Source of the DNA: a virus
Direction: 5' to 3' (one strand)
Length of the DNA stretch: 64,000 nt
Virus genome (UHGV): UHGV-0200554
The position numbers were made by a program, and so were the translations under genes. Shown piece by piece: positions 32,501 to 45,618 of the stretch (positions are counted from its first letter, which is position 1; the number at the start of each line of letters is the position of its first letter). Below the pieces are notes generated by a model. It saw only the letters and a program-made list of their open reading frames with translations, did no database searches and was not told the DNA's origin.

Positions 32501-32859
32501 AAATGATAATCATTCTCAAAATATATTGCGTGCATCCCCGGTGATTGTCTCCCGGCCCCTGGTGCCCCGGCTTGATTATATAATAACAGATCCGGCCCCC
32601 ATGTCAACAGCTTTTTTAGAAAAATATTAGTTACAACATCCTGGCGCCACCTGGCAGGGCCATCATGACCATGATCCGGTCCGGCGCTTGCGCCCTGGTC
32701 CATCCTCCGCACATTAGTTACAGCATTCCAACGACCGATCCCCGATAGTCTGCAACCTGGCGGGGCCGCCTGGTCCACTGGACCGCCTCCCCTGGTCCGG
32801 TGGGGAGTCCGGCTTGCAATTCAAAATGTGATCTGTGTCAACCTTTCACCATGTAGCTA

Positions 32860-32888
32860 TTGATCAGGTTACGGCCTAGTGTATTCTA
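32860..32888 (+). promoter_or_regulatory. promoter-like element (TTGATC-17-ATTCTA) with conserved GTATTCTATAG(G/C)TGAA start region
   Basis: Paralogous to element at 38496; followed by purine-rich leader. Confidence 0.4.
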
Positions 32889-32955
32889 TAGGTGAAGGGA
32901 AACAAAGGGGAAACGGAAAGCAAAACACCAGGCCGCAAGGCAGGAGGAAAATAAA

Positions 32956-33132
32956 ATGAAAGGCATGGTTAACAACAACAACGTAAAAGAGAGGGAAATT
33001 ATTGTTAATGGTCGTGAGATTGACAATAAACGCCGGAAAGCTATGCGTGATGCCCTGGTCAACTGGTTGGATTATGAAAAAATGATGGTAATGGCAGCGG
33101 GTGCCGCAGCTGGTGAATTTAACCACAGATAA
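32956..33132 (+). CDS. small hypothetical protein (58 aa)
   Basis: Not in ORF track; GGAGGAAAATAAAATG initiation module; hand translated. Confidence 0.45.
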   Translation: MKGMVNNNNVKEREIIVNGREIDNKRRKAMRDALVNWLDYEKMMVMAAGAAAGEFNHR

Positions 33133-33148
33133 CCACAGGGGGGCAAAG

Positions 33149-33343
33149 GTGTTAGCTTATAATCTTCCAGGCCGTCGCCGTACGGTTGCCGACCAGGTAA
33201 CGGCAAAGGCAGACGTAACAATCAACAACGGGCAGGGCCTTTACAAGTTTAAACGGGGGAACAGCTATACGATCCAGTTTCTTAACCGTTGTGCTTTAAC
33301 ACCTGGTCAGATCAACCATTGGTTTAAAGCTAAAAAATTTTAA
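33149..33343 (+). CDS. hypothetical basic protein
   Basis: ORF track 33101..33343; possible GTG start 33149 after AGGGGGG; start uncertain. Confidence 0.35.
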   Translation: MLAYNLPGRRRTVADQVTAKADVTINNGQGLYKFKRGNSYTIQFLNRCALTPGQINHWFKAKKF

Positions 33344-33351
33344 AAAATTAG

Positions 33352-33380
33352 TTGACACCAGAAAGAAATAAAGTATTATA
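33352..33380 (+). promoter_or_regulatory. sigma70-like promoter with A-tract UP element
   Basis: AAAAAATTAGTTGACA, 17-bp spacer, ATTATA; conserved GAAAGCAGTA downstream. Confidence 0.55.
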
Positions 33381-33428
33381 GATAGTGAAAGCAGTACACA
33401 AGGTTAACAAAATATAAGGAGTAACATC

Positions 33429-33830
33429 ATGAGCGCTTTTAACACTGATTTCGATTTCTCTGGTCTGGAAGAAGTTCGCGATCTTCGTAACTGCCGCCGC
33501 GAAAACGGTTTTTATAAATCTCTGGACCTGGTGGCACTGGACCACAAAATGGACCTGGAAGAAGTAGCAACGATTCGTTTCTACCAGTCACCGCGCGGTA
33601 ACACTGTTTACTGTGTAGTATGGGTACATGAAGCAGGGCACGAATTTTATGCCACTGCTGGCGGGAAAGCTGGTGGCTATGGTTACGATAAAGAGGAGGC
33701 CGCATTACGGGAAGCTATCGAGGCGATGGGTGTAAAAGCTGGCGATTATGCTCACCCTGAAAAATTTTTAATCCAGCTTGCTCGCTACTTCGGATATGAA
33801 AAAGCTAAAGTGATTGAAGCACACGCATAA
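33429..33830 (+). CDS. hypothetical protein
   Basis: ORF track; AAGGAG RBS; CGY-biased Arg codons. Confidence 0.55.
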   Translation: MSAFNTDFDFSGLEEVRDLRNCRRENGFYKSLDLVALDHKMDLEEVATIRFYQSPRGNTVYCVVWVHEAGHEFYATAGGKAGGYGYDKEEAALREAIEAMGVKAGDYAHPEKFLIQLARYFGYEKAKVIEAHA

Positions 33831-33842
33831 GCTGCCTTTTAG

Positions 33843-33863
33843 ATGGCCCCCTGGTGGGGCCAT
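33843..33863 (+). repeat. intergenic palindromic element (TTTTAGATGGCC...GGCCAT family)
   Basis: ATGGCCCC-CTGGT-GGGGCCAT hairpin preceded by GCCTTTTAG and followed by TGATAAAG. Confidence 0.5.
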
Positions 33864-33907
33864 TGATAAAGGTAACTTGGGGCAACAATAACCGAGAGAA
33901 AGAAAAT

Positions 33908-34342
33908 ATGAAACGTTTACCACGCTGGATCCGCTTTATTAATAAACTTGCCGCAGATGAAAAAATCCAGGCTATGCATAAAGATAACCGCGAACGCCGT
34001 GCTGCCTTACGAGATTATCGCCGCATGTTGGCAAAGTTAGCCAATAAAAATGGCGTTCTTAAACCGTTCCGCAAAGTGATCCACCTGGTCGCTATGGGAG
34101 CGCCTAAGGTGGCAAACGTTCCAAACGTCCATAAGATTGATGACCGCGACGTTGTAAGAGATATTGATAAAGATTTTTCTCCGAAGGCCATCAATCAGCG
34201 GATCAACAGCTGCAAAAATAAGAAAGATCTTGATAATTTGTTAGATAGCCTCGACGCTTTAGGGTGTGATTATGATTTCTTAGATGACAAGATTAATAAA
34301 AAATACCGCGAATTGGCTGGTTATCGCGTCAACCGGATTTAA
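33908..34342 (+). CDS. hypothetical basic protein
   Basis: ORF track trimmed to ATG 33908. Confidence 0.5.
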   Translation: MKRLPRWIRFINKLAADEKIQAMHKDNRERRAALRDYRRMLAKLANKNGVLKPFRKVIHLVAMGAPKVANVPNVHKIDDRDVVRDIDKDFSPKAINQRINSCKNKKDLDNLLDSLDALGCDYDFLDDKINKKYRELAGYRVNRI

Positions 34343-34629
34343 CATATCAGAATAGTTGGCCCTGGTGGATCCGATCCGTGCACGGTCCAGGGTATGCCCG
34401 AAAACCTCCCCCATTACGCCGCTACGCCTGTTTTGAAGGTGTGGCGGTGTAGTTGCACCTCTTTGCAAAACACCTCGCCATAATACTTATTTGATGCCTT
34501 ATTTTCGATACGCTCAAATAATGACCAATCAATCGCCCCCACCATGATTTTTTTCTTGCAATCCCCCAATGTATGAATACAATAACAATTGAAGGCAGTA
34601 TTAACAAAAACACAAGAAGGGGAAACAAA

Positions 34630-34800
34630 ATGGATAAAATCTATTACGTTGTTTATCGCGGCCTTAATGTTGCCTGGTACGACAATTTGGCTGAGGCAAT
34701 GGAAGAGGCGCACGACCGTTACGACCTGGGGCGTAACCGCCTTGAAGTGGTGGATAGCGACGGCGTGATCTATTGGTGTAGTGAGGATCTGGAATACTGA
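34630..34800 (+). CDS. small hypothetical protein (56 aa)
   Basis: ORF track 34573..34800 trimmed to ATG 34630 (AAGGGGAAAC RBS). Confidence 0.45.
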   Translation: MDKIYYVVYRGLNVAWYDNLAEAMEEAHDRYDLGRNRLEVVDSDGVIYWCSEDLEY

Positions 34801-34811
34801 AAAAAAAATAG

Positions 34812-34840
34812 TTGACACGACCGTTTGAAAGTGTAGTATA
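34812..34840 (+). promoter_or_regulatory. sigma70-like promoter with A-tract UP element
   Basis: AAAAAAAATAGTTGACA, 17-bp spacer, AGTATA. Confidence 0.5.
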
Positions 34841-34895
34841 TAAACCGAAGGGGAAAGAAATTTCCCAGAGGTAAAAAACAAAGAGGATAAAAATC

Positions 34896-35171
34896 ATGGC
34901 TATCATCGAAAAAGTAAACGTTCCAGCCACTTATAATAAAGGTTATAACGGTTGGAAAAATTACAATCAGTGGAACGTTGCACTGTGGATCAATAACGAC
35001 GAAAGTTTATACTTCTTTGCCCTGGGCTTGATTAATGAGTGTGGCAATAAAGACGCGGCAGCTGATTTGATGGTTTACCGCTTGAAAGAAGAGGGGATCA
35101 CTCATACGCCTGATGGGGTGCCTTACAATAAAACTAACATCCGCGCCGCTATGGTCGGAATGCCGCACTGA
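34896..35171 (+). CDS. hypothetical protein
   Basis: ORF track; RBS GAGGAT. Confidence 0.5.
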   Translation: MAIIEKVNVPATYNKGYNGWKNYNQWNVALWINNDESLYFFALGLINECGNKDAAADLMVYRLKEEGITHTPDGVPYNKTNIRAAMVGMPH

Positions 35172-35247
35172 TAGCCGCCTTACCCTGGGGCCGTGGCAGC
35201 GCCCCATGAATAAGGTTACTACCCCCACAATAACAGGAGGTAACATT

Positions 35248-35358
35248 ATGAACATTATCGCGGCAATCATTGTAGGCTATGCCCTCTTTTTGCTGGGCTT
35301 GCACCTGGCGGCAGTTATCAAAGGCCTGATCGATTTCTTTAAAAAAGATGAAAAATAG
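35248..35358 (+). CDS. small membrane peptide (36 aa)
   Basis: ORF track 35113..35358 trimmed to ATG 35248 with AGGAGG RBS; hydrophobic. Confidence 0.4.
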   Translation: MNIIAAIIVGYALFLLGLHLAAVIKGLIDFFKKDEK

Positions 35359-35360
35359 TG

Positions 35361-35389
35361 TTGACAGGTGAGAGAAAATAAATATACTT
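35361..35389 (+). promoter_or_regulatory. sigma70-like promoter
   Basis: TTGACA 35361-35366, 17-bp spacer, ATACTT; GAAAGCAGTA downstream. Confidence 0.5.
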
Positions 35390-35438
35390 AACCATGAAAG
35401 CAGTAAACGAGATTAATAAAACACAGGAGAAAAAGATC

Positions 35439-35849
35439 ATGAAAACTACTTTCCGTAATGCAAATGGTTTAACTGCATTCGCTTTAGCTTGTGGATATGT
35501 TCAAATGGTAGAGGGGCGGGATCGTGAAATGGTGGATCTGTTTAAAGCCCACGGTTGCTACCATGTTCGCGCTTTTAATGCTGATGGCGAGCGGCAAGCA
35601 TGGTTTAGTGTGCCATCTTTAACTGATGCCCGTCGCCATTGGAAAGAACTGGTAAAACTGATTTTCGGTGCACGCATTGCACAAGTGAAACGCTGCAAAC
35701 GTTACGAAGTGCGCCACGTCCTGGACCTGAGAGGGGAGGCAGTTTACCAGGTTATCTATCGCTACGATGGGGAGTCTCGCCACGTCGGCTACTGTGAAAA
35801 CGTGGACGCGGCATGGATGATTGCACACCGCGACTATGTAAGCCTATAG
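35439..35849 (+). CDS. hypothetical protein
   Basis: ORF track trimmed to ATG 35439 (CAGGAGAAAAAG RBS). Confidence 0.5.
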   Translation: MKTTFRNANGLTAFALACGYVQMVEGRDREMVDLFKAHGCYHVRAFNADGERQAWFSVPSLTDARRHWKELVKLIFGARIAQVKRCKRYEVRHVLDLRGEAVYQVIYRYDGESRHVGYCENVDAAWMIAHRDYVSL

Positions 35850-35872
35850 GTTATTTTTCGGTGGCCTGGGTA

Positions 35873-35901
35873 TTGACACCGGGCCATCTATAAAGTAACC
35901 T
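35873..35901 (+). promoter_or_regulatory. promoter-like element with -35 inside palindromic loop
   Basis: GGTGGCC-TGGGTATTGACACC-GGGCCATC; TTGACA 35873-35878. Confidence 0.35.
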
Positions 35902-35933
35902 AAAGATCCACACAACGAAGGGGGGGAACAATC

Positions 35934-36026
35934 ATGAAAAACTATTCTCACTATTTGATCCGTCGTGATGTTATGATTATGGCCCTGGGCTACCTGGTTA
36001 TGTTTGCTTTTCGTGTAATGCTGTAA
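35934..36026 (+). CDS. small hydrophobic peptide (30 aa)
   Basis: Not in ORF track; RBS GAAGGGGGGGAA; hand translated. Confidence 0.35.
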   Translation: MKNYSHYLIRRDVMIMALGYLVMFAFRVML

Positions 36027-36044
36027 AATAAATTAAAAAATTAG

Positions 36045-36073
36045 TTGACACAGTAGCAAAAATAAGTAAACTT
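36045..36073 (+). promoter_or_regulatory. sigma70-like promoter with A-tract UP element
   Basis: AAAAAATTAGTTGACA; weak -10; GAAAGAAGTAATTAG downstream. Confidence 0.45.
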
Positions 36074-36117
36074 AAAACTGAAAGAAGTAATTAGTAAACC
36101 ACAAAGAGGAAAACATC

Positions 36118-36477
36118 ATGAAACGCATCAATAAGGCTATGGCTAACGCAATCCGTGCTTATGTAGTTGACAGCTTAAACTTTGACGACATGGAACACGA
36201 CAACGACGTTGAGGAACTGAAAGCACGCTTTGAAGCTGAGCATTTTGACGGCTATTATATCCGTCGCTTTAACGGCAACCGTGTAAAAGCAATGGCCGAC
36301 TGGTTAGCAGGACTGCCGAGCGGTGTAGACATTGACTTCTGTAATGATGACATTTTAAACCGCTTGCGTGAGTTCGGAATCATTGACGAAAAAACTAAAG
36401 AAGACACTAAAGATCGCTACATTGACGAATGGTTTGAACTGATGGCGCGGTTTTATGTGGAACTAGCATACAAATAA
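36118..36477 (+). CDS. hypothetical protein
   Basis: ORF track; AGAGGAAAACATCATG module. Confidence 0.55.
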   Translation: MKRINKAMANAIRAYVVDSLNFDDMEHDNDVEELKARFEAEHFDGYYIRRFNGNRVKAMADWLAGLPSGVDIDFCNDDILNRLREFGIIDEKTKEDTKDRYIDEWFELMARFYVELAYK

Positions 36478-36516
36478 AATAGCTTGCTTTTAGATGGCCT
36501 CGAAAAAAAAAAATAG

Positions 36517-36545
36517 TTGACACGGGGCCATCGATAAAGTAAACT
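36517..36545 (+). promoter_or_regulatory. promoter-like element with -35 inside TTTTAGATGGCC...GGCCATC palindrome
   Basis: GATGGCC-TCGAAAAAAAAAAATAGTTGACACG-GGGCCATC; TTGACA 36517-36522. Confidence 0.4.
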
Positions 36546-36583
36546 AACACACAGTAAGAAGTAACAACAAAGGAGAAAACATT

Positions 36584-36922
36584 ATGAACGCTAACATTGA
36601 ACTGATTGCACGTCGTGCCGCCCTGGTTGCAGCTATCGAACAATTGAACAATAAAATTGAAAACTTTGAAATTGATCCAGATGACTACGAAAACGACTAC
36701 GATGATTTACTAGACGAAGGCGGTGCGGTAGTGGTAGGCGGTTGCGAATTTCTCCCGTCTAGAATCCTCCGCGAACTGGATCCGATTGCTTATCGTTGCG
36801 GCCTGAATGATTATATAGACAACATTGATGTAAGCGATGACGCAAACTATTGTGATTTGTGTGACGATCTGGCTGACCTTGAGGCAGAACTAGGGGAAGT
36901 CGAGGAAGCGCTACGTAACTAA
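36584..36922 (+). CDS. highly acidic small protein (DNA-mimic candidate)
   Basis: ORF track; 112 aa very rich in Asp/Glu (DPDDYENDYDDLLDE..., DVSDDANYCDLCDDLADLEAELGEVEE). Confidence 0.55.
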   Translation: MNANIELIARRAALVAAIEQLNNKIENFEIDPDDYENDYDDLLDEGGAVVVGGCEFLPSRILRELDPIAYRCGLNDYIDNIDVSDDANYCDLCDDLADLEAELGEVEEALRN

Positions 36923-36933
36923 GTTGCCTTTTA

Positions 36934-36957
36934 GATGGCCTCCCTGGCGGGGCCATC
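36934..36957 (+). repeat. intergenic palindromic element (TTTTAGATGGCC...GGCCATC family)
   Basis: GATGGCC-TCCCTGGCGG-GGCCATC preceded by GCCTTTTA, followed by CATAAAG. Confidence 0.5.
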
Positions 36958-37001
36958 CATAAAGATAATTTAGTGTAACCACAATAAAAAGGAGTTACGC
37001 A

Positions 37002-37250
37002 ATGGCAAAATTAATTAACTTTGCAGCGGTGGACCTGGTAAAAGCTGATTGGTATTATAGCAATGGTCGCGCCGTTTGGTGGCGTGAAGGGGGTGCCGAG
37101 GGCAAAGTAAAAGCGCGTATGATTAAAGGTTACCATTTAGATCGCCCTGTAATTCGTATCAATGGGAAGCTGGTCGCTTTCATGCATATCAAAGCGGTTG
37201 ACGATATTGAAAAAATTTTGAACGTCAACTATTTTAAAATGTTAGGGTGA
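37002..37250 (+). CDS. hypothetical protein
   Basis: ORF track; AAGGAG RBS. Confidence 0.5.
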   Translation: MAKLINFAAVDLVKADWYYSNGRAVWWREGGAEGKVKARMIKGYHLDRPVIRINGKLVAFMHIKAVDDIEKILNVNYFKMLG

Positions 37251-37339
37251 CATGCCAGGCGGGGGCCGTTAGTCCGGCCCCCTCTATCCAACCAGGAGGA
37301 GGTGACACTATGCCCAGTTAACAACAGAGAGGAAAATAT

Positions 37340-37678
37340 ATGGACCTCATGACGTGCATACTCGCATTTATTGCAATAGGTGTAGTCTGGAACAAAGTAA
37401 AAAACCAGAGTTATTACGCCAGATGCCAGGCTTTTCGGGTGAATCCGTGGGATATTGATCCGGGTGCTGATTATGTTATCAAGTACCAGGACCGACACGG
37501 CAAACAATATGTAACGCCGTCGCCGATACCGGCCTATTGCTTGCTGGAATACACAGACAAGATAAAACAGGCAGGTTTTTTAATTGTTGACCTGTGGGGC
37601 CGCCACGGTGACGCGAAAAAATTTATTAAAGCAGTGGCTGCAAATATTGCAGCACAAGAAAACGACGATGAAGAGTAA
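37340..37678 (+). CDS. hypothetical protein with N-terminal hydrophobic segment
   Basis: ORF track; GAGAGGAAAATATATG. Confidence 0.5.
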   Translation: MDLMTCILAFIAIGVVWNKVKNQSYYARCQAFRVNPWDIDPGADYVIKYQDRHGKQYVTPSPIPAYCLLEYTDKIKQAGFLIVDLWGRHGDAKKFIKAVAANIAAQENDDEE

Positions 37679-37692
37679 CAGGAGCGCCGATT

Positions 37693-37914
37693 ATGAACAT
37701 GGTAAACTTTGAAAAAATTACTAAGCGCAATCATTTATCTGACGAACTACCGGAACGCCGCCAGCGTAACAACAAGCTGAATAAACCGCGTCGATTTGGT
37801 AAACTGTGGCGCAACTATTACGACCGTAATTTACGCCGCCTGTTACTTGAACGTGAACGCCAACAAATGAGATACGCAGCACGGCGGGAACGGATGAAAG
37901 CAGACGAAATTTAA
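37693..37914 (+). CDS. Arg-rich basic small protein
   Basis: ORF track; RRQRNNKLNKPRR...RRERMK. Confidence 0.5.
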   Translation: MNMVNFEKITKRNHLSDELPERRQRNNKLNKPRRFGKLWRNYYDRNLRRLLLERERQQMRYAARRERMKADEI

Positions 37915-37930
37915 CCGATAGGCCCCCAGG

Positions 37931-37954
37931 TGGGGGCCTTTCTTCATTTGTAAC
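37931..37954 (+). terminator. rho-independent terminator
   Basis: GGCCCCCA-GG-TGGGGGCC hairpin then TTTCTT. Confidence 0.6.
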
Positions 37955-38154
37955 ATAGCGCAATCAATTTTAAGGCCCTTAAAACGCCCTACAACGCAAA
38001 GAAGCCTAAAGGTGAACAATTGCATTACCCGCCCCCAATTAGTAATTTGTGATCAAGATCTCACAAAAATTAATAGGTAAAAACCTTATTTACTTCTTAT
38101 AGGATCTGCATACCATTTTAATTGAAAGAAGAAACACAGCAGGAGGAAAATAAA

Positions 38155-38364
38155 ATGGTCTACTGTGATTATGCCAATGATGCACTGGGCCGCTATGAGA
38201 AAGGCCGTTATTATGACCTGAGCGAAATAATTGATAACGAGGATTATTACATCGATAAGAATGATGATCATCTAGTCGTTATCCATCGCGTAGTCGATCC
38301 GATGTGCTTCGTGGACGTTAGCCCGATTGTGGCACGCTTTGAAATTATGGTATTGGAGGCTTGA
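38155..38364 (+). CDS. hypothetical acidic protein
   Basis: ORF track trimmed to ATG 38155 (CAGGAGGAAAATAAAATG). Confidence 0.5.
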   Translation: MVYCDYANDALGRYEKGRYYDLSEIIDNEDYYIDKNDDHLVVIHRVVDPMCFVDVSPIVARFEIMVLEA

Positions 38365-38366
38365 TT

Positions 38367-38468
38367 ATGTTACTTGAAATGCTGATGAATCCGATTATTT
38401 CTATGGGCCTGATCTTTGTAGTTGTCTGCCTGGTTGTTGGTTTTATCTTGAGCAATATGCGGAAGTAA
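38367..38468 (+). CDS. small membrane peptide (33 aa)
   Basis: Not in ORF track; hydrophobic; TGATTATG coupling; hand translated. Confidence 0.35.
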   Translation: MLLEMLMNPIISMGLIFVVVCLVVGFILSNMRK

Positions 38469-38495
38469 AAATTTTTAAAAAGCTATGAAAAAGTG

Positions 38496-38526
38496 TTGAC
38501 ACGGCCCCCCGGTTTGGTATTCTATA
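38496..38526 (+). promoter_or_regulatory. sigma70-like promoter with conserved GTATTCTATAGCTGAA start region
   Basis: TTGACA 38496-38501, 17-bp spacer, ATTCTA; paralogous to 32860 element; followed by about 250-nt purine-rich leader. Confidence 0.5.
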
Positions 38527-38777
38527 GCTGAAAGGAAAAGAAAGGGAACAAGAAGGAAAGTTCCGGGAGCGGGAAAAGAAGGGTAAGGGAAAAGCCTTGA
38601 AGCATAGCTAACCGAAGGACCGAGGGAGCCGGGAGCGGCCCTAAAAGATACTCAAAGAAGTAAAAAGAAGTTGACAAGGTAACACAAAGCAGTAAAATAA
38701 AGTTGAAAGGGAAGGATGCAGGGAGCAACAAGGACCGGATAAACCGGGGGGAGCTGAAAGAAAACGAGGAAAATAAA

Positions 38778-38864
38778 ATGAAAGACTACTACAAAGCAAA
38801 CGAATATGAAAGGGTAGCAGATTTCATTAAAGAAATGTTAAAAGGTCTGAATAATAAAAAATGA
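38778..38864 (+). CDS. tiny ORF (28 aa)
   Basis: GAGGAAAATAAAATG module; hand translated; coding status uncertain. Confidence 0.3.
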   Translation: MKDYYKANEYERVADFIKEMLKGLNNKK

Positions 38865-38872
38865 GGTGGGGT

Positions 38873-38986
38873 ATGAAAAACAAGCAAGAAAGGCCCGAAG
38901 ATGACAAATTTACATGGCGTGAGCTTTTAAACATCTGGTACATCATTTACGGGCAACATTATAAACACAGAGGAGGGAGGTTATAA
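38873..38986 (+). CDS. tiny ORF (37 aa)
   Basis: RBS GAGGTGGGG; followed by GGAGGGAGG-TTATAAA-CCTCCCACC hairpin; coding status uncertain. Confidence 0.3.
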   Translation: MKNKQERPEDDKFTWRELLNIWYIIYGQHYKHRGGRL

Positions 38987-39033
38987 ACCTCCCACCACAA
39001 AGAAAGAAACAACAACCAAGCGAGGAAAATAAA

Positions 39034-39261
39034 ATGAGCAACGTTATCAAGTTCCCCATGAATCGTGTAAAACCATCTAAAGGTGTGGTTAATTTCGATA
39101 ATAAGGTTTACCGCATGGCCTGGATCGTTAGAAACAGCGACAATAAGGGCGATATCTGGGTAGAGGCATTCAGGCGGGAGGTTGATGCTATTTTTTCAAG
39201 AAGTGTAAGGGGAGGCCGGATCATTAGAGGATTTTTCAAAGCGGCACCGGAAGAGGTTTAA
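39034..39261 (+). CDS. hypothetical protein
   Basis: ORF track; GCGAGGAAAATAAAATG module. Confidence 0.5.
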   Translation: MSNVIKFPMNRVKPSKGVVNFDNKVYRMAWIVRNSDNKGDIWVEAFRREVDAIFSRSVRGGRIIRGFFKAAPEEV

Positions 39262-39266
39262 AAAGG

Positions 39267-39300
39267 TTGACAAATCATAAAAAACAAGTAGACTGATAAT
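39267..39300 (+). promoter_or_regulatory. sigma70-like promoter (spacer ambiguous)
   Basis: AAAAAGGTTGACA; GATAAT -10 candidate; CGAAAGCAGTA downstream. Confidence 0.4.
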
Positions 39301-39336
39301 CGAAAGCAGTAAACAATTTAAAAGGAGAACATAATC

Positions 39337-39531
39337 ATGAAACACATCAACATCGTAAACCTGAAAAAAGTTTGCAAAATTGCAATTTTTGTGGAAGGTG
39401 TCGAGGCTTATCGTTGCGACTACGAAGATTATAAAGATGCGTTAGCTTTCCTCCTGGACGTGGCACACCACAACAATCTAGACTATGAAGCCATCGAGGC
39501 AGCCGAAAAAGTTATGGCAATTGCCGCATGA
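39337..39531 (+). CDS. hypothetical protein
   Basis: ORF track; AAGGAGAACATAATCATG. Confidence 0.5.
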   Translation: MKHINIVNLKKVCKIAIFVEGVEAYRCDYEDYKDALAFLLDVAHHNNLDYEAIEAAEKVMAIAA

Positions 39532-39542
39532 GTTAGCTTTTA

Positions 39543-39569
39543 GATGGTCCACGATGCGAAAGTGGATCA
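39543..39569 (+). repeat. intergenic palindromic element (TTTTAGATGG...CATCAATAAAG family)
   Basis: ATGGTCCAC-GATGCGAAA-GTGGATCAT preceded by GCTTTTAG. Confidence 0.45.
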
Positions 39570-39612
39570 TCAATAAAGAAAACTCAACCACGAAGCAAGA
39601 AGGAGAAACATC

Positions 39613-39843
39613 ATGGACCTTATGACAGCTGTTGCAACATACGACTATAAAAACTTTTTTGATGTAGTCATGATTAAAAAACCAGCTAACGCCCGGATGC
39701 CTGCAAATGGTTACGGTAAAAAATTACCGACTAACTGGATGATCAATTTCGAGGGCCGTATGCGCCGCGTCTATGTTGATATCTGTGGCAATTCTGGACA
39801 CAGGTACATCATGGTTAAAGGCCGTAAATTTACTATCATGTAA
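39613..39843 (+). CDS. hypothetical protein
   Basis: ORF track; AGGAGAAACATCATG. Confidence 0.5.
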   Translation: MDLMTAVATYDYKNFFDVVMIKKPANARMPANGYGKKLPTNWMINFEGRMRRVYVDICGNSGHRYIMVKGRKFTIM

Positions 39844-39904
39844 CACGATTTCAACCAGGGCCGGAAGTCCGGCCCTATCATCAACCAACAAAGGGGATCA
39901 AAAA

Positions 39905-40024
39905 ATGAAAGACAAGCCTCGACCTTGCAGCGATACAATTTACCATCTGATAGCATGGTGTGAGATCCTGGCAATTGAAGCCCTTATGGGTGTTGGCATT
40001 TACTTTATAGCGATCTATAATTAA
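39905..40024 (+). CDS. small membrane peptide (39 aa)
   Basis: ORF track 39773..40024 trimmed to ATG 39905 (AAAGGGGA RBS). Confidence 0.35.
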   Translation: MKDKPRPCSDTIYHLIAWCEILAIEALMGVGIYFIAIYN

Positions 40025-40057
40025 CGCGAAAGGAAATAGCCATGAGGAATAAAAGCA

Positions 40058-40414
40058 ATGAGAATCATCGACCTGTTAAACCGTATGCCGGACGTCAACG
40101 AGATGGCCCCCGATATGAACGAAATTGATCGAGAAGCTGCCGAAAAAGCGGCCCGTAAAATTAAATGCCGTGGGGCCGCTATCGGTGCGGTGCTTTTTGG
40201 CCTTGCTTATGCTCATATTGATTTGGTCCATAACATTTTCCACAATGCACCGATCAAAATCGTGTTAGCCTGGATTGTCTGCTACGTGTGCGGTGAGTAC
40301 ATTTACCCGGTTGCCAAAAAATTGGCCCCGTGGGCCGTCCTGGGTGCGGTGATCTATTATGTTGCGCCTGTGATTATTGCAATCGTAAAACATTACACAG
40401 CGCAACAAATGTAA
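40058..40414 (+). CDS. membrane protein
   Basis: ORF track; multiple hydrophobic helices. Confidence 0.5.
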   Translation: MRIIDLLNRMPDVNEMAPDMNEIDREAAEKAARKIKCRGAAIGAVLFGLAYAHIDLVHNIFHNAPIKIVLAWIVCYVCGEYIYPVAKKLAPWAVLGAVIYYVAPVIIAIVKHYTAQQM

Positions 40415-40425
40415 GAGATTCTAAG

Positions 40426-40449
40426 GGCCGCAAATAAGCGGCCTTTTTT
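40426..40449 (+). terminator. rho-independent terminator (GGCCGCAAATAAGCGGCC + T6)
   Basis: Perfect 6-bp stem, AAATAA loop, TTTTTT; identical hairpin recurs at 43944. Confidence 0.75.
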
Positions 40450-40753
40450 ATGGCCCCGCCTCCTGTGTTTAAAATCCTTCCTGTAAGCCCCGCCATTGAG
40501 ATTTACCCGCAAGATAAGCAAGTGTAAAGCCCCACCATTCCAGGCCGTTGCAGGCCCTGCCAGGTGCCTAAAAATCGATTTATACGCTTCCACTATTGCC
40601 AACCTTCAAAGCGATCCAGACTTAAAAGTGTTGCCCCTGCAAAATGAGAATAGTTATCATCTTATAAATTTTTCTTGCAATGTGGTCTGTTGTGTGTATA
40701 CTTATTCTTGAAAGGGGAATACCTCCCCCACCAACAACAAAGGAGTTAAAATT

Positions 40754-41035
40754 ATGTTCCCTAACCTATTCCCTGGTGCGGTTATCAATTTTGAAGCCCG
40801 TTATTTGCAAGCTGGTATGATTATCATTCGAAATGATCGCCCATTGAAATTAACTAGGGTAGAATACAATGAAGGCCAGGCCCCTGGCGAGGAAACTGTA
40901 GACTACTTCTTCATGTATGCAGATGAGGATCCAAATGATAACACTGGCGAATGGTTTAACTTCTTCCTGCCGGACGAAATGATTAAAGTGCTTTATTATC
41001 CTGGTAACCGTTATCCGCTTCATGCGCTTTTCTAA
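40754..41035 (+). CDS. hypothetical protein
   Basis: ORF track; AAGGAG RBS. Confidence 0.5.
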   Translation: MFPNLFPGAVINFEARYLQAGMIIIRNDRPLKLTRVEYNEGQAPGEETVDYFFMYADEDPNDNTGEWFNFFLPDEMIKVLYYPGNRYPLHALF

Positions 41036-41130
41036 AAAAAATCTTCATAAAGGCTTGCAATGTGCAGGCCTTTTTCCTACTATAAAGGTGAAGAAAGAAG
41101 TAAGGCCAACAGTTAGAGGAGTAACAAATT

Positions 41131-41340
41131 ATGGGCATGGGAAGAGATAAACGTAAAGCGGCGAAAGCAAGAAAAGCGGCAGCAAAGGCCGCACCTGTTA
41201 AAGCTGTACCGTACCACGTCAATATAAACAACCTGGAAGTAATGAACAATCCGGCCCCTATGGAAGAATTTAACGATGCGGATTGGAGGGCGGTAGCAAG
41301 AATGGTTATCCGGCTTGAACGCCTTGCCAGGGAAGAGTAA
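41131..41340 (+). CDS. Lys/Ala-rich basic small protein
   Basis: ORF track; AGAGGAG RBS. Confidence 0.5.
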   Translation: MGMGRDKRKAAKARKAAAKAAPVKAVPYHVNINNLEVMNNPAPMEEFNDADWRAVARMVIRLERLAREE

Positions 41341-41361
41341 AAAAGTTAGAAAAAAAAACGG

Positions 41362-41389
41362 TTGACACAGAATAGAGAAGGCCTATAAT
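41362..41389 (+). promoter_or_regulatory. sigma70-like promoter TTGACA-16-TATAAT with A-tract UP element
   Basis: AAAAAAAAACGGTTGACA; TATAAT 41384-41389; GAAAGAAGTAATTAG downstream. Confidence 0.6.
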
Positions 41390-41439
41390 TAAAGTGAAAG
41401 AAGTAATTAGAAACAACAAAATAAGAAGAGGTAAGTATC

Positions 41440-41706
41440 ATGAAAATGGTAGACGTTAAAGGCATCAAGAACGTTAAAATGCAAAAAAATACTCCCGCAA
41501 ACGTTCTTAAAAAAGCCCTGAGCATCCTAGAAGCACACAACGCAAAAACGGTGCATCCTGTTAAATTAAATTGCGGTTATGGCTATAAATACAATATTAA
41601 TAAAGACTGGAGGCTGTTAAACCGTGATGGCGAATTTAAAGATTGGTTAATTGTTGAGCACTTGGAGTATAATCGTCTGGTTGGCGTAAAAGGCGCTCAT
41701 AAATAA
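41440..41706 (+). CDS. hypothetical basic protein
   Basis: ORF track. Confidence 0.5.
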   Translation: MKMVDVKGIKNVKMQKNTPANVLKKALSILEAHNAKTVHPVKLNCGYGYKYNINKDWRLLNRDGEFKDWLIVEHLEYNRLVGVKGAHK

Positions 41707-41751
41707 CGCCAGAACATGAAAACACAGCATAAAACACTAAGAGGGAACGCC

Positions 41752-41931
41752 ATGATTAGAGAATCCCAAATACTTTACGAAAATGGCAACTACTGGATCC
41801 TTGAGGCTAAACCGGGGGTTTACCAGGTGATGGTAAAAGGTTTAACGCATTCGACTTGCGATAGCGCCTACGCAGATTTTGATCTAGCATTGGCCCGGTG
41901 TGAGTACCTGGCACGAAGAGAAAACGCATAA
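41752..41931 (+). CDS. hypothetical protein
   Basis: ORF track 41716..41931 trimmed to ATG 41752 (AGAGGGAA RBS). Confidence 0.45.
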   Translation: MIRESQILYENGNYWILEAKPGVYQVMVKGLTHSTCDSAYADFDLALARCEYLARRENA

Positions 41932-41937
41932 AAGAAA

Positions 41938-41960
41938 GGCCCCACCCAGGGGCCTTAACT
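41938..41960 (+). terminator. terminator-like hairpin
   Basis: GGCCCC-ACCCA-GGGGCC then TTAACTTT. Confidence 0.45.
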
Positions 41961-41986
41961 TTATGAAAAAAAATCTGAAAAAATAG

Positions 41987-42015
41987 TTGACACCTTGCTG
42001 GGATAGTATATTATT
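41987..42015 (+). promoter_or_regulatory. sigma70-like promoter with A-tract UP element
   Basis: GAAAAAATAGTTGACA; TATATTATT -10 region; GAAAGCAGTA downstream. Confidence 0.5.
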
Positions 42016-42057
42016 AAATTGAAAGCAGTACTAAACCACTTGAAAGAGGAAAAGATC

Positions 42058-42540
42058 ATGAAAGCGTTCAAATATGTTTTAGCGGCCCTGGCGATGGTTA
42101 TCGGTGTAAATGTGAATGCTGGCGGTTTTAGAGTCGAGGCCCCCGAGCATATCAATCCGGTTTATGTGAAAGAAATTTTAATGAATTGCGCCGGGGAAAT
42201 GGTTGCACCTGATGCGGTGTTTAATCCTGATGCACCGATCAACGTTAAAAAAGGTTGGCTGGCTAAAGCTGACAAAGAATGTAAAACATTGGTAAATAAT
42301 GTTATCGTTCACGCCCTGATTGTTGACCTGATTATCAAGAAAGGCCCTGAAAATATGAAGGGCATGGACGAAGAGGAGTTTAAAGAGTATTTCTATAACG
42401 AAGAAATGAAAGTGGAGAATTACCATTTTGATGAAAACGGTTATGAAGATGTTAAAGCTAACTTGAAAGATGTTTACAATCTTGCGCTTGAAAATCCTAA
42501 AGCCGCCCATGCTATCAAGGTGCGAATGATGGGAAAATAA
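42058..42540 (+). CDS. secreted/periplasmic protein (signal peptide)
   Basis: ATG 42058 with AGAGGAAAAG RBS; N-terminus MKAFKYVLAALAMVIGVNVNA-GG resembles a Sec signal peptide with AXA-like site. Confidence 0.55.
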   Translation: MKAFKYVLAALAMVIGVNVNAGGFRVEAPEHINPVYVKEILMNCAGEMVAPDAVFNPDAPINVKKGWLAKADKECKTLVNNVIVHALIVDLIIKKGPENMKGMDEEEFKEYFYNEEMKVENYHFDENGYEDVKANLKDVYNLALENPKAAHAIKVRMMGK

Positions 42541-42544
42541 AAGT

Positions 42545-42573
42545 ATTGACAAGCTGCCAGGTTGTTGTAAGAT
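42545..42573 (+). promoter_or_regulatory. sigma70-like promoter
   Basis: TTGACA 42545-42550; weak -10 TAAGAT. Confidence 0.4.
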
Positions 42574-42617
42574 GTAAATAAAAGAAGTACCACACCAAAT
42601 AAGAGGAGTACCAAATC

Positions 42618-42797
42618 ATGAAACGGAATATTAAAAAGGTCAACAACCTGGTAAATGTTGCAATGCGTGAACGTGAAAATGCTCTAGACCTTCTCCCCGA
42701 TGACGATATCGATGAGGAGGTGGCAGAAAAAGCCGTCTACCTGGCTAAAAACCTTGAGAATTTCGACATGCACGAACTGTTAAAAATGGCCCTGTAA
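42618..42797 (+). CDS. small acidic protein (59 aa)
   Basis: Not in ORF track; AAGAGGAG RBS; hand translated to TAA 42795-42797. Confidence 0.45.
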   Translation: MKRNIKKVNNLVNVAMRERENALDLLPDDDIDEEVAEKAVYLAKNLENFDMHELLKMAL

Positions 42798-42849
42798 GGC
42801 GGGGCCGATACCCCGCCAGCTATCCACCAAATCGAAAGGAGTGATTATT

Positions 42850-43146
42850 ATGTTTATCCCTGCAAACGGTTTATTCTTCTTTGACGGTATGATCGACAAT
42901 GCCGCCGTAATGGTCGAGATTGCCAACAAAAACGGCGGCCAGGTGATGGCATTCCGTGATGACCATGACCATGATCGATGGTTAGAGGTCGAGATCCAAA
43001 AAGTGGACGAAAAAAGCTATCTAGTGATCTACCGCCTCTTTGAAGACGGTCGCCAGGAGGCAGGGGATCAGGCCATCTTCCCGCGCTACATGGTCCAGGG
43101 TGCGATCATCGCTTTCGTGAACGATGTTTTCCCTGTTGAAGAATAA
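42850..43146 (+). CDS. hypothetical protein
   Basis: ORF track; ATG 42850 with AAAGGAG RBS. Confidence 0.5.
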   Translation: MFIPANGLFFFDGMIDNAAVMVEIANKNGGQVMAFRDDHDHDRWLEVEIQKVDEKSYLVIYRLFEDGRQEAGDQAIFPRYMVQGAIIAFVNDVFPVEE

Positions 43147-43353
43147 CCGACTATACTCGAAAGCTGAAAATCAAAAAATAGCCCATCTAATCGCCACACA
43201 GGCGGGATAAACCTGGGGAGGCCTTGCAAGTGCATAGCCTCCTTTTTCATGCCCTTAAAACGCTTCCTGTTGCGTTTCCTGCGATACGGTCCAGGCCGTG
43301 ACGGCGGTCCGGTCCGGTGTAGGGTGTTCAAATGTTGTAACTAAAAATAATCC

Positions 43354-43381
43354 TTGCACCGATTCACAAATAGGCTATAAT
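43354..43381 (+). promoter_or_regulatory. sigma70-like promoter TTGCAC-16-TATAAT
   Basis: TATAAT 43376-43381; GAAAGAGGTAATTAC downstream. Confidence 0.5.
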
Positions 43382-43425
43382 AAAAATGAAAGAGGTAATT
43401 ACCTCACATAATAAGGGGCAAAATC

Positions 43426-43683
43426 ATGAAAGGCTGGATTAAAAAGGTGACCGAAAAACGTTTTAACGCCATTTGGGATCTTATTGAAAAGGAAGAAGGT
43501 GCCTCAAGCCGCTACCTCAATAATCTTGAATTTCATTACGTGGAAGCGATGAATGCAGAACATGACCACAAAGGCGGCGCGGATGATTTTGCAAAAAGGT
43601 ACGGTTTTAATAATGCCAACGAGATGATCGAGGCGGTTGTACTCCAGGCAGAAGAAGACTACGCAGAAAGGGCGCTTGGTTAA
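43426..43683 (+). CDS. hypothetical protein
   Basis: ORF track. Confidence 0.5.
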   Translation: MKGWIKKVTEKRFNAIWDLIEKEEGASSRYLNNLEFHYVEAMNAEHDHKGGADDFAKRYGFNNANEMIEAVVLQAEEDYAERALG

Positions 43684-43726
43684 TACACGGGCCGAAAGGC
43701 CCACCACACAAAGAGGAGTAAAAATT

Positions 43727-43921
43727 ATGGCACTTAAAAAATTAACTGAAAAAACTCGTTGGGATATGATCGACGGGGAAGTCTATATTTTCGCCCGTAA
43801 ACCTGGCGATCAAAAATGGGTAAAAGCGTTCACTTGTCACCCTGCTGTTATTGACCTCATTAAAAGTAAAGGCCTACGTGAAGCAGTGGCACGTAGTCTA
43901 TTAATCCCTTGCAAAGAATAA
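43727..43921 (+). CDS. hypothetical protein
   Basis: ORF track 43637..43921 trimmed to ATG 43727 (AAGAGGAG RBS). Confidence 0.5.
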   Translation: MALKKLTEKTRWDMIDGEVYIFARKPGDQKWVKAFTCHPAVIDLIKSKGLREAVARSLLIPCKE

Positions 43922-43943
43922 TATAACTGACGAAATAATAAGA

Positions 43944-43966
43944 GGCCGCAAATAAGCGGCCTTTTT
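43944..43966 (+). terminator. rho-independent terminator (GGCCGCAAATAAGCGGCC + T5), duplicate of 40426
   Basis: Identical 18-nt hairpin followed by TTTTT; last element of the small-gene array. Confidence 0.75.
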
Positions 43967-44630
43967 GTTGTCTGTAGTATAGTGAATCCGGTATTCAAAA
44001 CAGCGGATCATTCCGCGAACGCTATGCGTGATGTGTGCATAAAATAAAATGCCTATAAATTAACCACACCACAAAAAAGCTGTATGTGCATACATAGTTT
44101 TTAAGTTTTTTCAGTTTTCAGCTGTCAAATGTGGGGCATTTTGTGAAGTATCTCACACTTTTCGGCTGATGCACATTTTATATAGCTATGTCAACAACTA
44201 TAAATCTTTATAAAACAGTAAGTTACAAAGTCCATTTTTTGAAAAATCGGGTATAACTATAGGCGCGAAATTCTATTTTTCACGTAGCGTCACGATAAGA
44301 TGTATCTGATAGGTATGTTTTAATTATGCAATATTAATGCATAACCAACATGTGATAAATATTCTCAACAACCCGGCAGATGTATTAAATATGGTGACTA
44401 TTCCACCCCACATTATTTCAGACGGCAACTATTCCGATGTGTGATTAATATACTTTCAGGCGGTGATTATTCTGTATCTCAATAATCTATATAATATAAT
44501 ATTAGTAATATAATTAGATTATGAGATACAAGAAAACATCTAAAATAGTAAAATTACAATTAATGAAAATATATAAATTGCATAAAATAAAATAAGACAA
44601 ATAACAATTTGCGAATGCAATGATCACAAT

Positions 44631-45572: not shown

Positions 45573-45578
45573 CTGAGC

Positions 45579-45618
45579 TGTGGATAAGTCTGTGGATAAC
45601 CCTGCCTCCTGTGGATAA
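45579..45618. promoter_or_regulatory. cluster of three DnaA boxes (TGTGGATAA = complement of TTATCCACA)
   Basis: Perfect 9-mers at 45579-45587, 45591-45599, 45610-45618, same orientation. Confidence 0.65.

Follow-up and report, generated by a model that had tools for sequence, protein, structure and literature searches.

The 64,000-nucleotide (nt) stretch of virus genome UHGV-0200554 analysed here, referred to as the window, raises the question of what an 11-kb island of small genes (32860-43970), lying between two converging gene modules, is for and where it came from. A sequence-only reading of the window had proposed either an immediate-early module for host takeover or anti-defence, or a horizontally acquired island. 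Here, our analysis argues that the island is the early-gene hyperplastic cassette region of a new rV5-like (Vequintavirinae) lineage, filled with accessory genes driven by host sigma-70, a reading to which we assign a probability of about 0.8. The position of the island is as first described: the plus-strand replication module extends up to ~32 kb and encodes a DnaB-like primase/helicase, a family A polymerase and a PIF1 helicase, while the minus-strand module runs from 64 kb down to ~47 kb and encodes NrdD, NrdG, PhoH and a Clp-like protease.

Judged by sequence comparison, the phage is a previously uncultured, so far metagenome-only relative of the E. coli phage rV5 (Vequintavirinae, myovirus). 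Its DnaB-type primase/helicase, with 1018 amino acids (aa), shares ~76% identity with the counterparts in rV5-like coliphages. A near-identity DNA search with the island matched the rV5 group in short patches alone, indicating the lack of a close relative in culture. Two IMG/VR contigs, 139 and 141 kb long and hereafter R1 (locus L004) and R2 (loci L005 and L008), show ~89% nt identity to the window over the region (the IMG/VR contigs of the lineage are 3300045988_140627 and 3300045988_159287), and ~20 further metagenomic contigs (Logan/ENA) encode near-identical versions of one island protein. By these matches the lineage is real, recurrent and, as far as the searched collections go, uncultured.

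The island open reading frames (ORFs) are genuine, constrained genes. The curated set comprises 32 plus-strand genes (g01-g32, 32956-43921) of 28-160 aa, in good agreement with the ~30 ORFs of 30-160 aa reported before, and nearly all of them carry a good Shine-Dalgarno sequence. The pooled ratio of nonsynonymous to synonymous substitution rates (dN/dS) was 0.11 against R1 and 0.10 against R2, with every gene that has an orthologue there under purifying selection; the shortest genes, of 28-39 aa, are likewise conserved in both relatives (dN/dS ~0.1). PHROG families were matched by 24 of the 29 island proteins tested, all of them labelled 'unknown function'.

Scanning of the intergenic regions revealed 18 sigma-70-type promoter-like sites for 17 transcription units. 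The remaining 15 genes sit promoter-less inside operons of two to four genes, which contradicts the earlier statement that almost every gene has its own promoter. The sites follow a single layout, namely an A-rich tract, TTGACA, a 16-nt spacer, TAnnnT and then (T)GAAAG: the -35 box is a perfect TTGACA in 12 of 18 (TTGCAA, TTGCAC, TTGATC or TTTACT in the others), the spacer measures 16 nt in 15 of 18, and the (T)GAAAG box lies 6-7 nt past the -10 in 16 of 18. Flank promoters are of another style (TTGACA-N14-TGTTATAnT, with an extended -10 and with neither A-tract nor GAAAG box), and sigma-70-type promoters with an upstream A-tract, the mark of an early small-ORF region in Vequintavirinae, are concentrated in the island. 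The conserved start region pointed out in the sequence-only reading proved to be far above chance, since TGAAAGMAGTA with up to one mismatch gave 19 matches where 3.2 were expected, the plus strand of the island accounting for 13. The promoter motif likewise clearly exceeds chance, as AAAAWWAGTTGACAC with up to two mismatches gave 13 matches against 0.98 expected, 8 of them within the island.

Translation starts are similarly standardised. As had been claimed, the ribosome-binding regions are strong, and they are alike enough to emerge as repeat families (D2, D3, D7, D8, D11 and D13), exemplified by the six copies of AAAGAGGAAAACATCATGAAA. The claim of a GC hairpin for each gene was borne out in part, as ~17 GC-rich intergenic hairpins were found but only ~6 of them carry a T-run. 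Repeat families D1, D4 and D5 join an early-type promoter and a stem-loop in one intergenic motif, with TTGACA placed inside the hairpin loop at 35860 and 36493. The window has five copies of a composite element, TTTTAGATGGCC-[loop with or without TTGACA]-GGCCATC-N-ATAAAGTAA, which is also found repeatedly in JLBYU08 and JEP1.

The regulatory regions are highly conserved among the window, R1 and R2; those of the g24 and g15 promoters are ~98-100% identical over 100-130 nt in genomes whose island genes have a synonymous divergence (dS) of ~0.4. The leader of g17 (38520-38777), 280 nt long, with 75-77% purine and 12 GGA per 200 nt, is also kept in R1 and R2 and is paralogous to the g01 leader (family D16). 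Together with a density of 18 promoters per 11 kb and a coding density of 70%, this conservation could be taken to mean that DNA or RNA elements are the main function of the island, with the promoters drawing off host RNA polymerase as a sink or the purine-rich leaders acting as sponges for RNA-binding proteins of the host. We consider this very improbable, given that the ORFs themselves are constrained down to the shortest genes and that the GA-rich leader displayed neither significant structure (z = -0.46) nor an Rfam match. The Rfam scan, with gathering and E-value thresholds, returned no known RNA family. A CsrA sponge was entertained for the same leader and dropped for want of structural support and an Rfam match.

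For codon usage, E. coli K-12 genes served as the reference, the host being taken as E. coli or a close enterobacterium by assumption. With average E. coli genes as reference, the island had a codon adaptation index (CAI) of 0.654 and the flanks one of 0.596 (p = 2e-4), compared with 0.686 for E. coli's own genes, and the correlation of relative synonymous codon usage with E. coli K-12 was 0.82 for the island and 0.75 for the flanks. The host-like codon usage noted earlier therefore stands as a modest but significant shift relative to average E. coli genes, and not relative to ribosomal-protein genes, where no significant shift was seen (p = 0.15). Arginine codons are not almost all CGY, as had been stated: CGY, CGR and AGR account for 66, 16 and 18% in the island versus 59, 13 and 29% in the flanks (chi-square p = 6e-5). 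The codons raised in the island are GGC, GCC/GCG, CCG, AGC, CGC and TTT, and those lowered are ATA, CCA, ACA, TCA, AGA and AAG, with AGA, ACA, CCA, TCA and ATA each roughly halved against the flanks. Since rV5 encodes transfer RNAs (tRNAs) for AGA, ACA, CCA, UCA, Tyr and Met (PMC3606486), the most avoided codons, apart from ATA, are those of rV5 tRNAs, a pattern that would fit translation before phage tRNAs build up; codon differences between early and late phage genes are a known phenomenon (PMC5683454). TAA stops (75% in the island, 45% in the flanks) and AAA second codons (41% and 22%) are enriched as well.

The composition of the island deviates at the level of neighbouring bases. GC content equals that of the flanks (0.438 and 0.440), and the island has an overall CpG observed/expected ratio of 1.2, the flanks one of 0.7. 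The region from 31 to 45 kb forms a sharply bounded domain in which CpG observed/expected reaches 0.9-1.26, against 0.5-0.85 outside, and the WW/SS index (weak-weak plus strong-strong neighbour pairs) exceeds 1.07, against less than 0.98 outside. CCWGG occurs 5.3 times per kb in the island versus 1.85 per kb, a roughly three-fold excess, and we attribute it to the codon shift because 32 of the 42 coding sites are NNC-CTG/CAG-G codon junctions; a Dcm-related signal was rejected on this ground. DarT-type avoidance of TNTC (8.4 per kb on the island sense strand versus 14-15) was rejected as well, most words that contain a weak-strong step being low too, so that the effect lacks specificity.

Deviant composition is a hallmark of genomic islands, and CpG, WW/SS and codon usage, though not GC content, mark this block as deviant. 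Such a sharp domain (CpG observed/expected ~1.1-1.2 versus ~0.7), together with homologues of single island genes in lambdoid, T7-like, Felix-O1-like and jumbo phages, might be read as the trace of a recent foreign insertion of the whole 11 kb, which would account for its host-like composition. Comparison with related phages makes this origin highly unlikely. When the concatenated island proteins served as a tblastn query, the rV5-like phages recovered showed a collinear block of 9-10 kb at the corresponding position; roughly a third of its residues are conserved (50-58% identity), and its products are all annotated as hypothetical. BLASTP identified collinear orthologues of 13 of the 32 genes in JLBYU08 at 32-79% aa identity. 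The block is thus present in the rV5-like relatives recovered. The CpG contrast recurs in all four rV5-type islands measured; in JEP1, L007 and the rV5-like contig L006, observed/expected is 1.10-1.15 inside the island and 0.66-0.72 outside. Synteny and shared CpG contrast therefore point to an old, fixed feature of the subfamily, and the island borders carry no integrase, tRNA or attachment-type or direct repeat. What survives of the proposed horizontal acquisition concerns single genes, which are swapped among close relatives and shared with unrelated phages.

The order of replication module, island on the same strand and large ORF-free stretch is common to the window, JLBYU08 and JEP1, and rV5 has the same layout, with a run of small ORFs adjoining an ORF-free stretch (nt 104013-106618) and 33 sigma-70 promoters (PMC3606486). 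The small-ORF region of rV5 (nt 92269-121323, PMC3606486) shares genome position and orientation with the island, from the replication genes to a ~2.5-kb non-coding stretch, and the rV5-type islands share its sigma-70 promoters, the composite GATGGCC-TTGACA-GGCCATC hairpin/promoter and the CpG contrast. They differ in more than half of their genes; moreover, the GAAAG(C/A)AGTA start box was not seen in JLBYU08 or JEP1, where many leaders open with short GC stem-loops. In Certrevirus (CB7, CR3, CR8 and CR9), promoters with a UP-like A-tract and -35/-10 boxes are likewise massed among short hypothetical ORFs, in a 'likely early gene region' with the consensus AAAA-N3-TGTTGAC-N19-TATAAT (PMC7344957); this is another genus of the Vequintavirinae, its TGTTGAC consensus contrasts with AGTTGACAC here, and no conserved transcribed box was reported there. 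A small-ORF region with sigma-70/UP promoters is thus already known from the rV5 and Certrevirus papers (PMC3606486, PMC7344957).

Turnover of single genes was evident even among the closest relatives. Alignment of R1 and R2 with the window revealed 12 indels or replacements, nearly all of whole genes. R1 carries a g32 paralogue between g07 and g08 (35351-35369), with a copy of the A-tract-TTGACA promoter on either side. In R2, a g12 paralogue takes the place of g05; the exchanged segment extends from the conserved TTGAAGGCAGT leader as far as the AAAAAAATAGTTGACAC promoter that follows. R2 also has an unrelated 136-aa exported or membrane protein in place of g28, with promoter, leader and initial codons unchanged and with the end of the exchanged segment at the following promoter. 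Both relatives possess an extra ORF between g26 and g27. Clear motif-bounded junctions are confined to the R1 insertion and the R2 exchanges of g05 and g28, and the remaining ones of the 12 lie at ribosome-binding sites or gene borders without an obvious repeat. From these junctions we infer that the repeated regulatory sequences may act as recombination points. The arrangement resembles the promoter-early stem-loop (PeSL) cassettes of T4-like phages (PMC2839356, PMC4122927), where repeated promoter/stem-loop motifs likewise lie between small early ORFs and close relatives differ by whole-ORF indels whose clearest junctions fall inside the motifs. The phage family is unrelated, so that no sequence relatedness of the motifs is to be expected; the likeness is one of arrangement.

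What the proteins may do was approached through family, sequence and structure searches. Three matches connect the island to early genes of other phages and to toxins: g27 shares 66% identity with SP6 gp1 (SP6 nt 711-878), the first SP6 gene, located in a cluster with an annotated Ocr-like gene; g14 scores above the cutoff for the T7 gene 1.1 family (PF08200, 37.4 bits versus 21); and g26 scores above the curated cutoff for a ParE-like toxin domain (PF24732, 43.3 versus 24.4 bits). Where a cognate antitoxin gene of g26 might be sought, g27 follows in the same operon; its SP6 homologue, however, stands alone, and R1 and R2 have the extra ORF in between. Homologues of g06 (DUF7249) are found 2-3 kb into T7/SP6-like genomes as well as in jumbo and phi92-like phages. 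Beyond DUF7249, T7 gp1.1 and ParE_like, the Pfam, NCBIfam and PHROGs searches gave no functional label, NCBIfam without any match. PDB sequence searches with single sequences of g03, g11, g26 and g28 and with profiles of g06 and g11 returned nothing significant, and a homologue search with g03 recovered three near-identical proteins alone. The product types listed in the sequence-only reading are all represented, by the acidic g11 (isoelectric point, pI, 4.1), the Arg-rich basic g14 (pI 11.3), the hydrophobic g07, g09, g16, g22 and g23 and the signal-peptide-like g28.

Structures were modelled for 2 of the 32 proteins, g11 and g06. The g11 model is a coiled-coil hairpin (AlphaFold2, mean predicted local distance difference test [pLDDT] 94.9) for which neither a Foldseek/PDB fold match with E < 1 nor a Pfam or PDB sequence match was obtained, and the g06 model (pLDDT 88) matched no solved fold. 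Two ideas about g11 were discarded: a zinc finger, as only one Cys is conserved, and a DNA mimic of the Ocr/ArdA type, which its acidity would suit but which lacks a family signature and is at odds with the predicted coiled-coil fold.

These results bear on the proposal that the island serves mainly as an arsenal against host defences, with the majority of its small proteins blocking restriction, CRISPR, abortive infection or similar systems. The genes are small, early-type, fast-turnover accessory genes, some of which unrelated phages also carry in their early regions; the SP6 homologue of g27 belongs to the same early cluster as the Ocr-like gene; several products are strongly acidic; and the turnover of cassettes among close relatives would fit an arms race. 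Yet no link to a known anti-restriction, anti-CRISPR or other anti-defence family emerged from Pfam, PHROG, NCBIfam or PDB, and the two models resemble no such fold. Cultured Vequintavirinae are, furthermore, reported to be exceptionally sensitive to restriction-modification (PMC8594841), which makes strong anti-restriction activity less likely for the conserved part of the block. On balance, we regard a mainly anti-defence role as unlikely, although appreciably more probable than either a recent foreign origin or a function in DNA and RNA elements.

The evidence is better accommodated by an early region that relies on the host transcription machinery. After DNA entry, unmodified host sigma-70 RNA polymerase would fire from 18 close-set promoters that share one architecture (an A-rich UP-like tract, TTGACA, a spacer of 16 nt and TAnnnT), with transcription probably starting in the conserved (T)GAAAG(C/A)AGTA box. 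The output would be 17 short transcripts with near-identical strong translation starts, AAA second codons and TAA stops, whose codon usage is biased towards the tRNA pool of the host and against AGA, ACA, CCA, TCA and ATA, such that ~32 small proteins could be made fast, ahead of phage tRNAs and of middle and late functions. The GC hairpins would terminate or stabilise the transcripts. The proteins would act as accessory host-interaction factors (ParE/RelE-like, T7 gp1.1-like, SP6 gp1-like, small membrane proteins and one exported protein), and the promoter, leader and hairpin repeats would double as recombination points at which single-gene cassettes are gained, lost and swapped. An early, takeover-type module read by host RNA polymerase fits all the indirect evidence, namely the promoters, the TAA and AAA preferences, the codons, the early-gene homologues and the literature.

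Known early regions offer a measure of this proposal. The class I early regions of T7 and SP6 also combine strong host-polymerase promoters and A-rich upstream tracts with small host-takeover genes, and there is direct homology for g27 (SP6 gp1), g14 (T7 gp1.1) and g06. They differ in having few promoters, long polycistronic transcripts and a switch to their own polymerase, in contrast to the 17 short units seen here. The pre-early and early promoters of T5 are likewise strong, of the host-polymerase type and preceded by A-rich tracts. In the rV5-like group, no phage polymerase is known (PMC7344957).

Several points weigh against the early-region reading. A literature search found no (time-resolved) expression data for Vequintavirinae, so that 'early' rests on promoter type and analogy. 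Promoter strength is assumed, and 15 of the 18 spacers measure 16 nt and not the optimal 17 nt. The codon shift is modest and vanishes against highly expressed E. coli genes; g18, g19, g25 and g27 are not host-like in codon usage; and the host, E. coli or a close enterobacterium, is itself an assumption. Finally, a tRNA scan of the window and of the fetched parts of its relatives found none, which means that the tRNA argument is borrowed from rV5.

A further property of the island came from amino acid composition. Ser, Thr and Gln make up 1.7, 1.6 and 1.5% of the island proteome, compared with 3.8, 4.5 and 2.7% of 58 small flank proteins (p = 2e-7, 5e-12 and 8e-4), and relative to the flanks the codon groups TCN, ACN and CAR are used at 0.24, 0.35 and 0.48 times the rate, while GCN, CGN and AAY are raised. 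The R2 island is depleted as well, and Ser and Thr are likewise scarce in the R1- and R2-specific cassette ORFs, whereas normal values (Ser ~4%, Thr 4-5%) were obtained for the syntenic islands of JLBYU08, JEP1, L006 and L007; among rV5-type islands, the Ser/Thr depletion is thus confined to the lineage of the window. Across 13 orthologue pairs, 53 Ser/Thr positions were lost and 18 gained (p = 4e-5). The depletion is lineage-specific, new and unexplained, and to our knowledge no such loss of Ser, Thr and Gln has been described for the early genes of phages. Weak-strong dinucleotide steps are scarce at each of the three codon junctions as well as in non-coding DNA, so that the cause may lie at the DNA level. 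It is conceivable, but in our estimate quite improbable, that the early products of the phage are shielded by their composition from something that is deployed or met at that time ('immunity by composition'). Candidate agents would be the co-expressed g26, a RelE/ParE-family protein, as a codon-selective messenger RNA (mRNA) interferase for host shut-off, or a Ser/Thr-directed modifying activity. g26 is present in the lineage of the window; the single rV5-type island examined for it, that of JLBYU08, yielded no homologue, and when other phages with g26 were sought, only the same two relatives, R1 and R2, came up.

The individual units, all on the plus strand and all with predicted promoters, are as follows. 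The g01-g02 operon is preceded by a predicted promoter of the form TTGATC-16-TATTCT (32860-32887), kept in R1 and R2 and followed by a GA-rich leader. g01 (32956-33132; PHROG 21957) encodes a basic, Ser/Thr-free 58-aa protein behind the Shine-Dalgarno sequence AGGAGG, with 93-95% aa identity in R1/R2 and dN/dS of 0.02-0.05, and g02 (33149-33343; PHROG 7119, E = 4e-25) a 64-aa protein with a GTG start and a JLBYU08 homologue at 66% identity. The next promoter, with start region TGAAAGCAGTA (33352-33396), serves g03 (33429-33830, 133 aa; PHROG 7028, E = 2e-44), which has an rV5-type homologue at 48% identity and no PDB relative, and g04 (33908-34342, 144 aa, basic; PHROG 13245), upstream of and within which the relatives carry insertions. 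At 33842-33864 lies a hairpin of the TTTTAGATGGCC...GGCCAT family (D5), its loop lacking a -35 box and its 3' side a T-run. The variable cassette g05 (34630-34800, 56 aa, acidic), missing in R1 as well as exchanged in R2, follows a promoter TTGCAA-16-TACAAT with TGAAGGCAGTA (34556-34600). A promoter followed by the 5' stem-loop GGGAAAGAAATTTCCC (34812-34866) precedes the variable cassette g06 (34896-35171, 91 aa; PF23907, 54 bits), also missing in R1, and the hydrophobic g07 (35248-35358, 36 aa; grand average of hydropathy [GRAVY] 1.17), kept in R1/R2.

The promoter of g08, again with TGAAAGCAGTA (35361-35405), leads to a basic 136-aa protein (35439-35849; PHROG 16510; dN/dS 0.14-0.18). The hydrophobic 30-aa g09 (35934-36026), 77-80% identical in R1/R2, stands behind a composite hairpin/promoter with TTGACA in the loop (35860-35901), and JLBYU08 and JEP1 carry the same element. 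A promoter with TGAAAGAAGTA (36045-36089) precedes the acidic g10 (36118-36477, 119 aa; PHROG 11100), which has homologues in Phapecoctavirus-type phages. The second composite hairpin/promoter (36493-36545, family D5) would drive the g11-g14 operon. In g11 (36584-36922, 112 aa), the tip of the predicted hairpin, DPIAYRCGLND, is conserved (alignment A1); a D5-family hairpin, TTTTAGATGGCC...GGCCAT, separates it from g12 (36934-36957). g12 itself (37002-37250, 82 aa; PHROG 11241) is the gene whose paralogue occupies the g05 position in R2, g13 (37340-37678, 112 aa; PHROG 12734) begins with a hydrophobic segment, and g14 (37693-37914, 73 aa) has an rV5-type homologue at 78% identity. An intrinsic-terminator-like hairpin with a T-run lies 3' of g14 (37920-37949, hairpin scan).

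The g15-g16 promoter is of weak consensus (TTTACT-16-TACCAT, with TGAAAGAAGAA; 38089-38133), in a region ~98% conserved in R1/R2, and a perfectly conserved palindrome, TGTGATCAAGATCTCACA (38048-38065), lies upstream of it. g15 (38155-38364, 69 aa, acidic) has no PHROG match and is kept in R1/R2, and the hydrophobic g16 (38367-38468, 33 aa; GRAVY 1.71) shows 85% nt identity there. Tandem promoters (38496-38523 and 38671-38698) precede g17-g19. Downstream of the purine-rich leader, g17 (38778-38864) encodes 28 aa with 96-100% identity in R1/R2; g18 (38873-38986, 37 aa; PHROG 16356) has dN/dS of 0.02-0.03; and g19 (39034-39261, 75 aa, basic) is AGR-rich with a low CAI. A promoter with CGAAAGCAGTA (39267-39311) heads the unit g20-g23, consisting of g20 (39337-39531, 64 aa; PHROG 12347), the basic g21 (39613-39843, 76 aa; PHROG 3436), whose C-terminal half is common to Felix-O1-like phages, g22 (39905-40024, 39 aa; PHROG 13629), hydrophobic at its C-terminus, and g23 (40058-40414, 118 aa; GRAVY 0.51), a predicted membrane protein without a PHROG match and with 94% aa identity in R1/R2. 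Another D5-family hairpin of the TTTTAGATGGCC...GGCCAT type lies between g20 and g21 (39543-39571), and the terminator-like hairpin GGCCGCAAATAAGCGGCC with a T-run, 3' of g23 (40426-40449, family D15), recurs as an identical copy in the terminator that closes the island (43940-43975).

The acidic g24 (40754-41035, 93 aa; PHROG 12610) follows a promoter TTGCAA-16-TATACT with a 5' stem-loop (40675-40730), 98-100% conserved in R1/R2. Just upstream, within the same 98-100% identical stretch, lies a Fur-box-like pair of inverted hexamers of the 6-1-6 type, GAGAAT-A-GTTATC (40646-40658), and a second such pair, GATAAT-C-ATTCTC, lies before the island (32503-32515). The -35 box of the g25 promoter falls within the hairpin 3' of g24 (41049-41102); g25 (41131-41340, 69 aa) has a Lys/Ala-rich N-terminus. 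A perfect TTGACA-16-TATAAT with TGAAAGAAGTA (41362-41405) precedes the operon of g26 (41440-41706, 88 aa, ParE/RelE-superfamily toxin-like) and g27 (41752-41931, 59 aa; PHROG 20712), 3' of which a GC hairpin was detected in the hairpin scan (41936-41956). The promoter of g28 with TGAAAGCAGTA (41987-42030) serves a variable cassette of 160 aa (42058-42540) whose N-terminus, MKAFKYVLAALAMVIGVNVNA, looks signal-peptide-like by inspection. A promoter with TAAAAGAAGTA (42546-42589) is followed by the acidic g29 (42618-42797, 59 aa) and g30 (42850-43146, 98 aa, also acidic; PHROG 7366), the latter 99% identical in R2, and by a hairpin with a T-run 3' of g30 (43217-43247, hairpin scan). The last unit has a promoter TTGCAC-16-TATAAT with TGAAAGAGGTA and a stem-loop (43354-43405), and comprises g31 (43426-43683, 85 aa; PHROG 7287, E = 4e-40), the best-conserved island gene, with an rV5-type homologue at 79% identity, and the variable cassette g32 (43727-43921, 64 aa; PHROG 20168), replaced in R2. 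By eye, one exact Chi sequence, GCTGGTGG, was seen inside g03 (33666-33673), roughly the count expected for 64 kb, and several hairpin loops read CCTGGTGG, one base from Chi.

The non-coding borders of the island also displayed distinctive features. In the gap between replication module and island, four iteron-like 28-nt direct repeats, AACTATAAATCACCGTGCGTTACTATTT (32350-32497, family D6), are spaced by 42, 36 and 42 nt. A near-perfect outward promoter on the minus strand (32497-32610; A-tract, TTGACA at 32607, TG-TATTAT) has no ORF behind it and may produce a small RNA or an origin-activating transcript; the segment 32497-32580 is 81% identical to L006, although most of the island is unalignable at the DNA level. 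The stretch upstream of g01 (32520-32830) is non-coding and rich in GC and CCWGG, and at this spot R1 (8614-9392 in L004) and R2 (8667-9399 in L005) possess a 229-aa ORF that is missing from the window, HNH-endonuclease-like by eye alone and with a normal Ser+Thr content of ~10%. A CRP-like TGTGA-N6-TCAAC (32828-32843) is centred ~61 nt upstream of the predicted g01 start. On the other side, the ORF-poor 2.4 kb at 43970-46430 are the counterpart of the rV5 'non-coding' region and contain a segment of 37-38% GC, repeated AACGCTGAG/TTAT units (44670-45020), four tandem GGGGAAGTATA(G) units (~45225-45270) and three exact DnaA boxes, TTATCCACA, on the minus strand within 40 bp (45579-45618), where the whole window has five against 0.8 expected. 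This stretch is a candidate replication origin or DnaA-titrating site. Between it and the minus-strand module lies a lone plus-strand ORF of 139 aa (46437-46856) with weak matches to HNH-endonuclease PHROGs (E = 7e-5). Farther upstream, the primase/helicase gene (14959-18015) aligns to its rV5-group homologues in two pieces covering 66-69% of the length, and the rV5-group records with a split primase/helicase annotate homing endonucleases or a Dcm-like methyltransferase nearby; the split alignment may reflect an intein or an inserted domain.

For annotation, these findings mean that the block can with good confidence be called an early, host-polymerase-driven accessory region of a new Vequintavirinae-like lineage, and should be called neither a foreign island nor a proven anti-defence locus. 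Its 18 natural promoters, with a conserved transcribed box and standardised translation starts, form a compact and regular set, and the distinct signature by which the early region of this subfamily resembles the host in dinucleotides and codons could aid the prediction of early genes from sequence alone. If the depletion of Ser, Thr and Gln reflects selection, it would point to a novel type of constraint to which early proteins or mRNAs are subject and, should the shielding idea be true, 'immunity by composition' for a whole class of genes. The island would also extend the shuffling of genes in PeSL-type 'regulatory cassettes' from T4-like to rV5-like phages.

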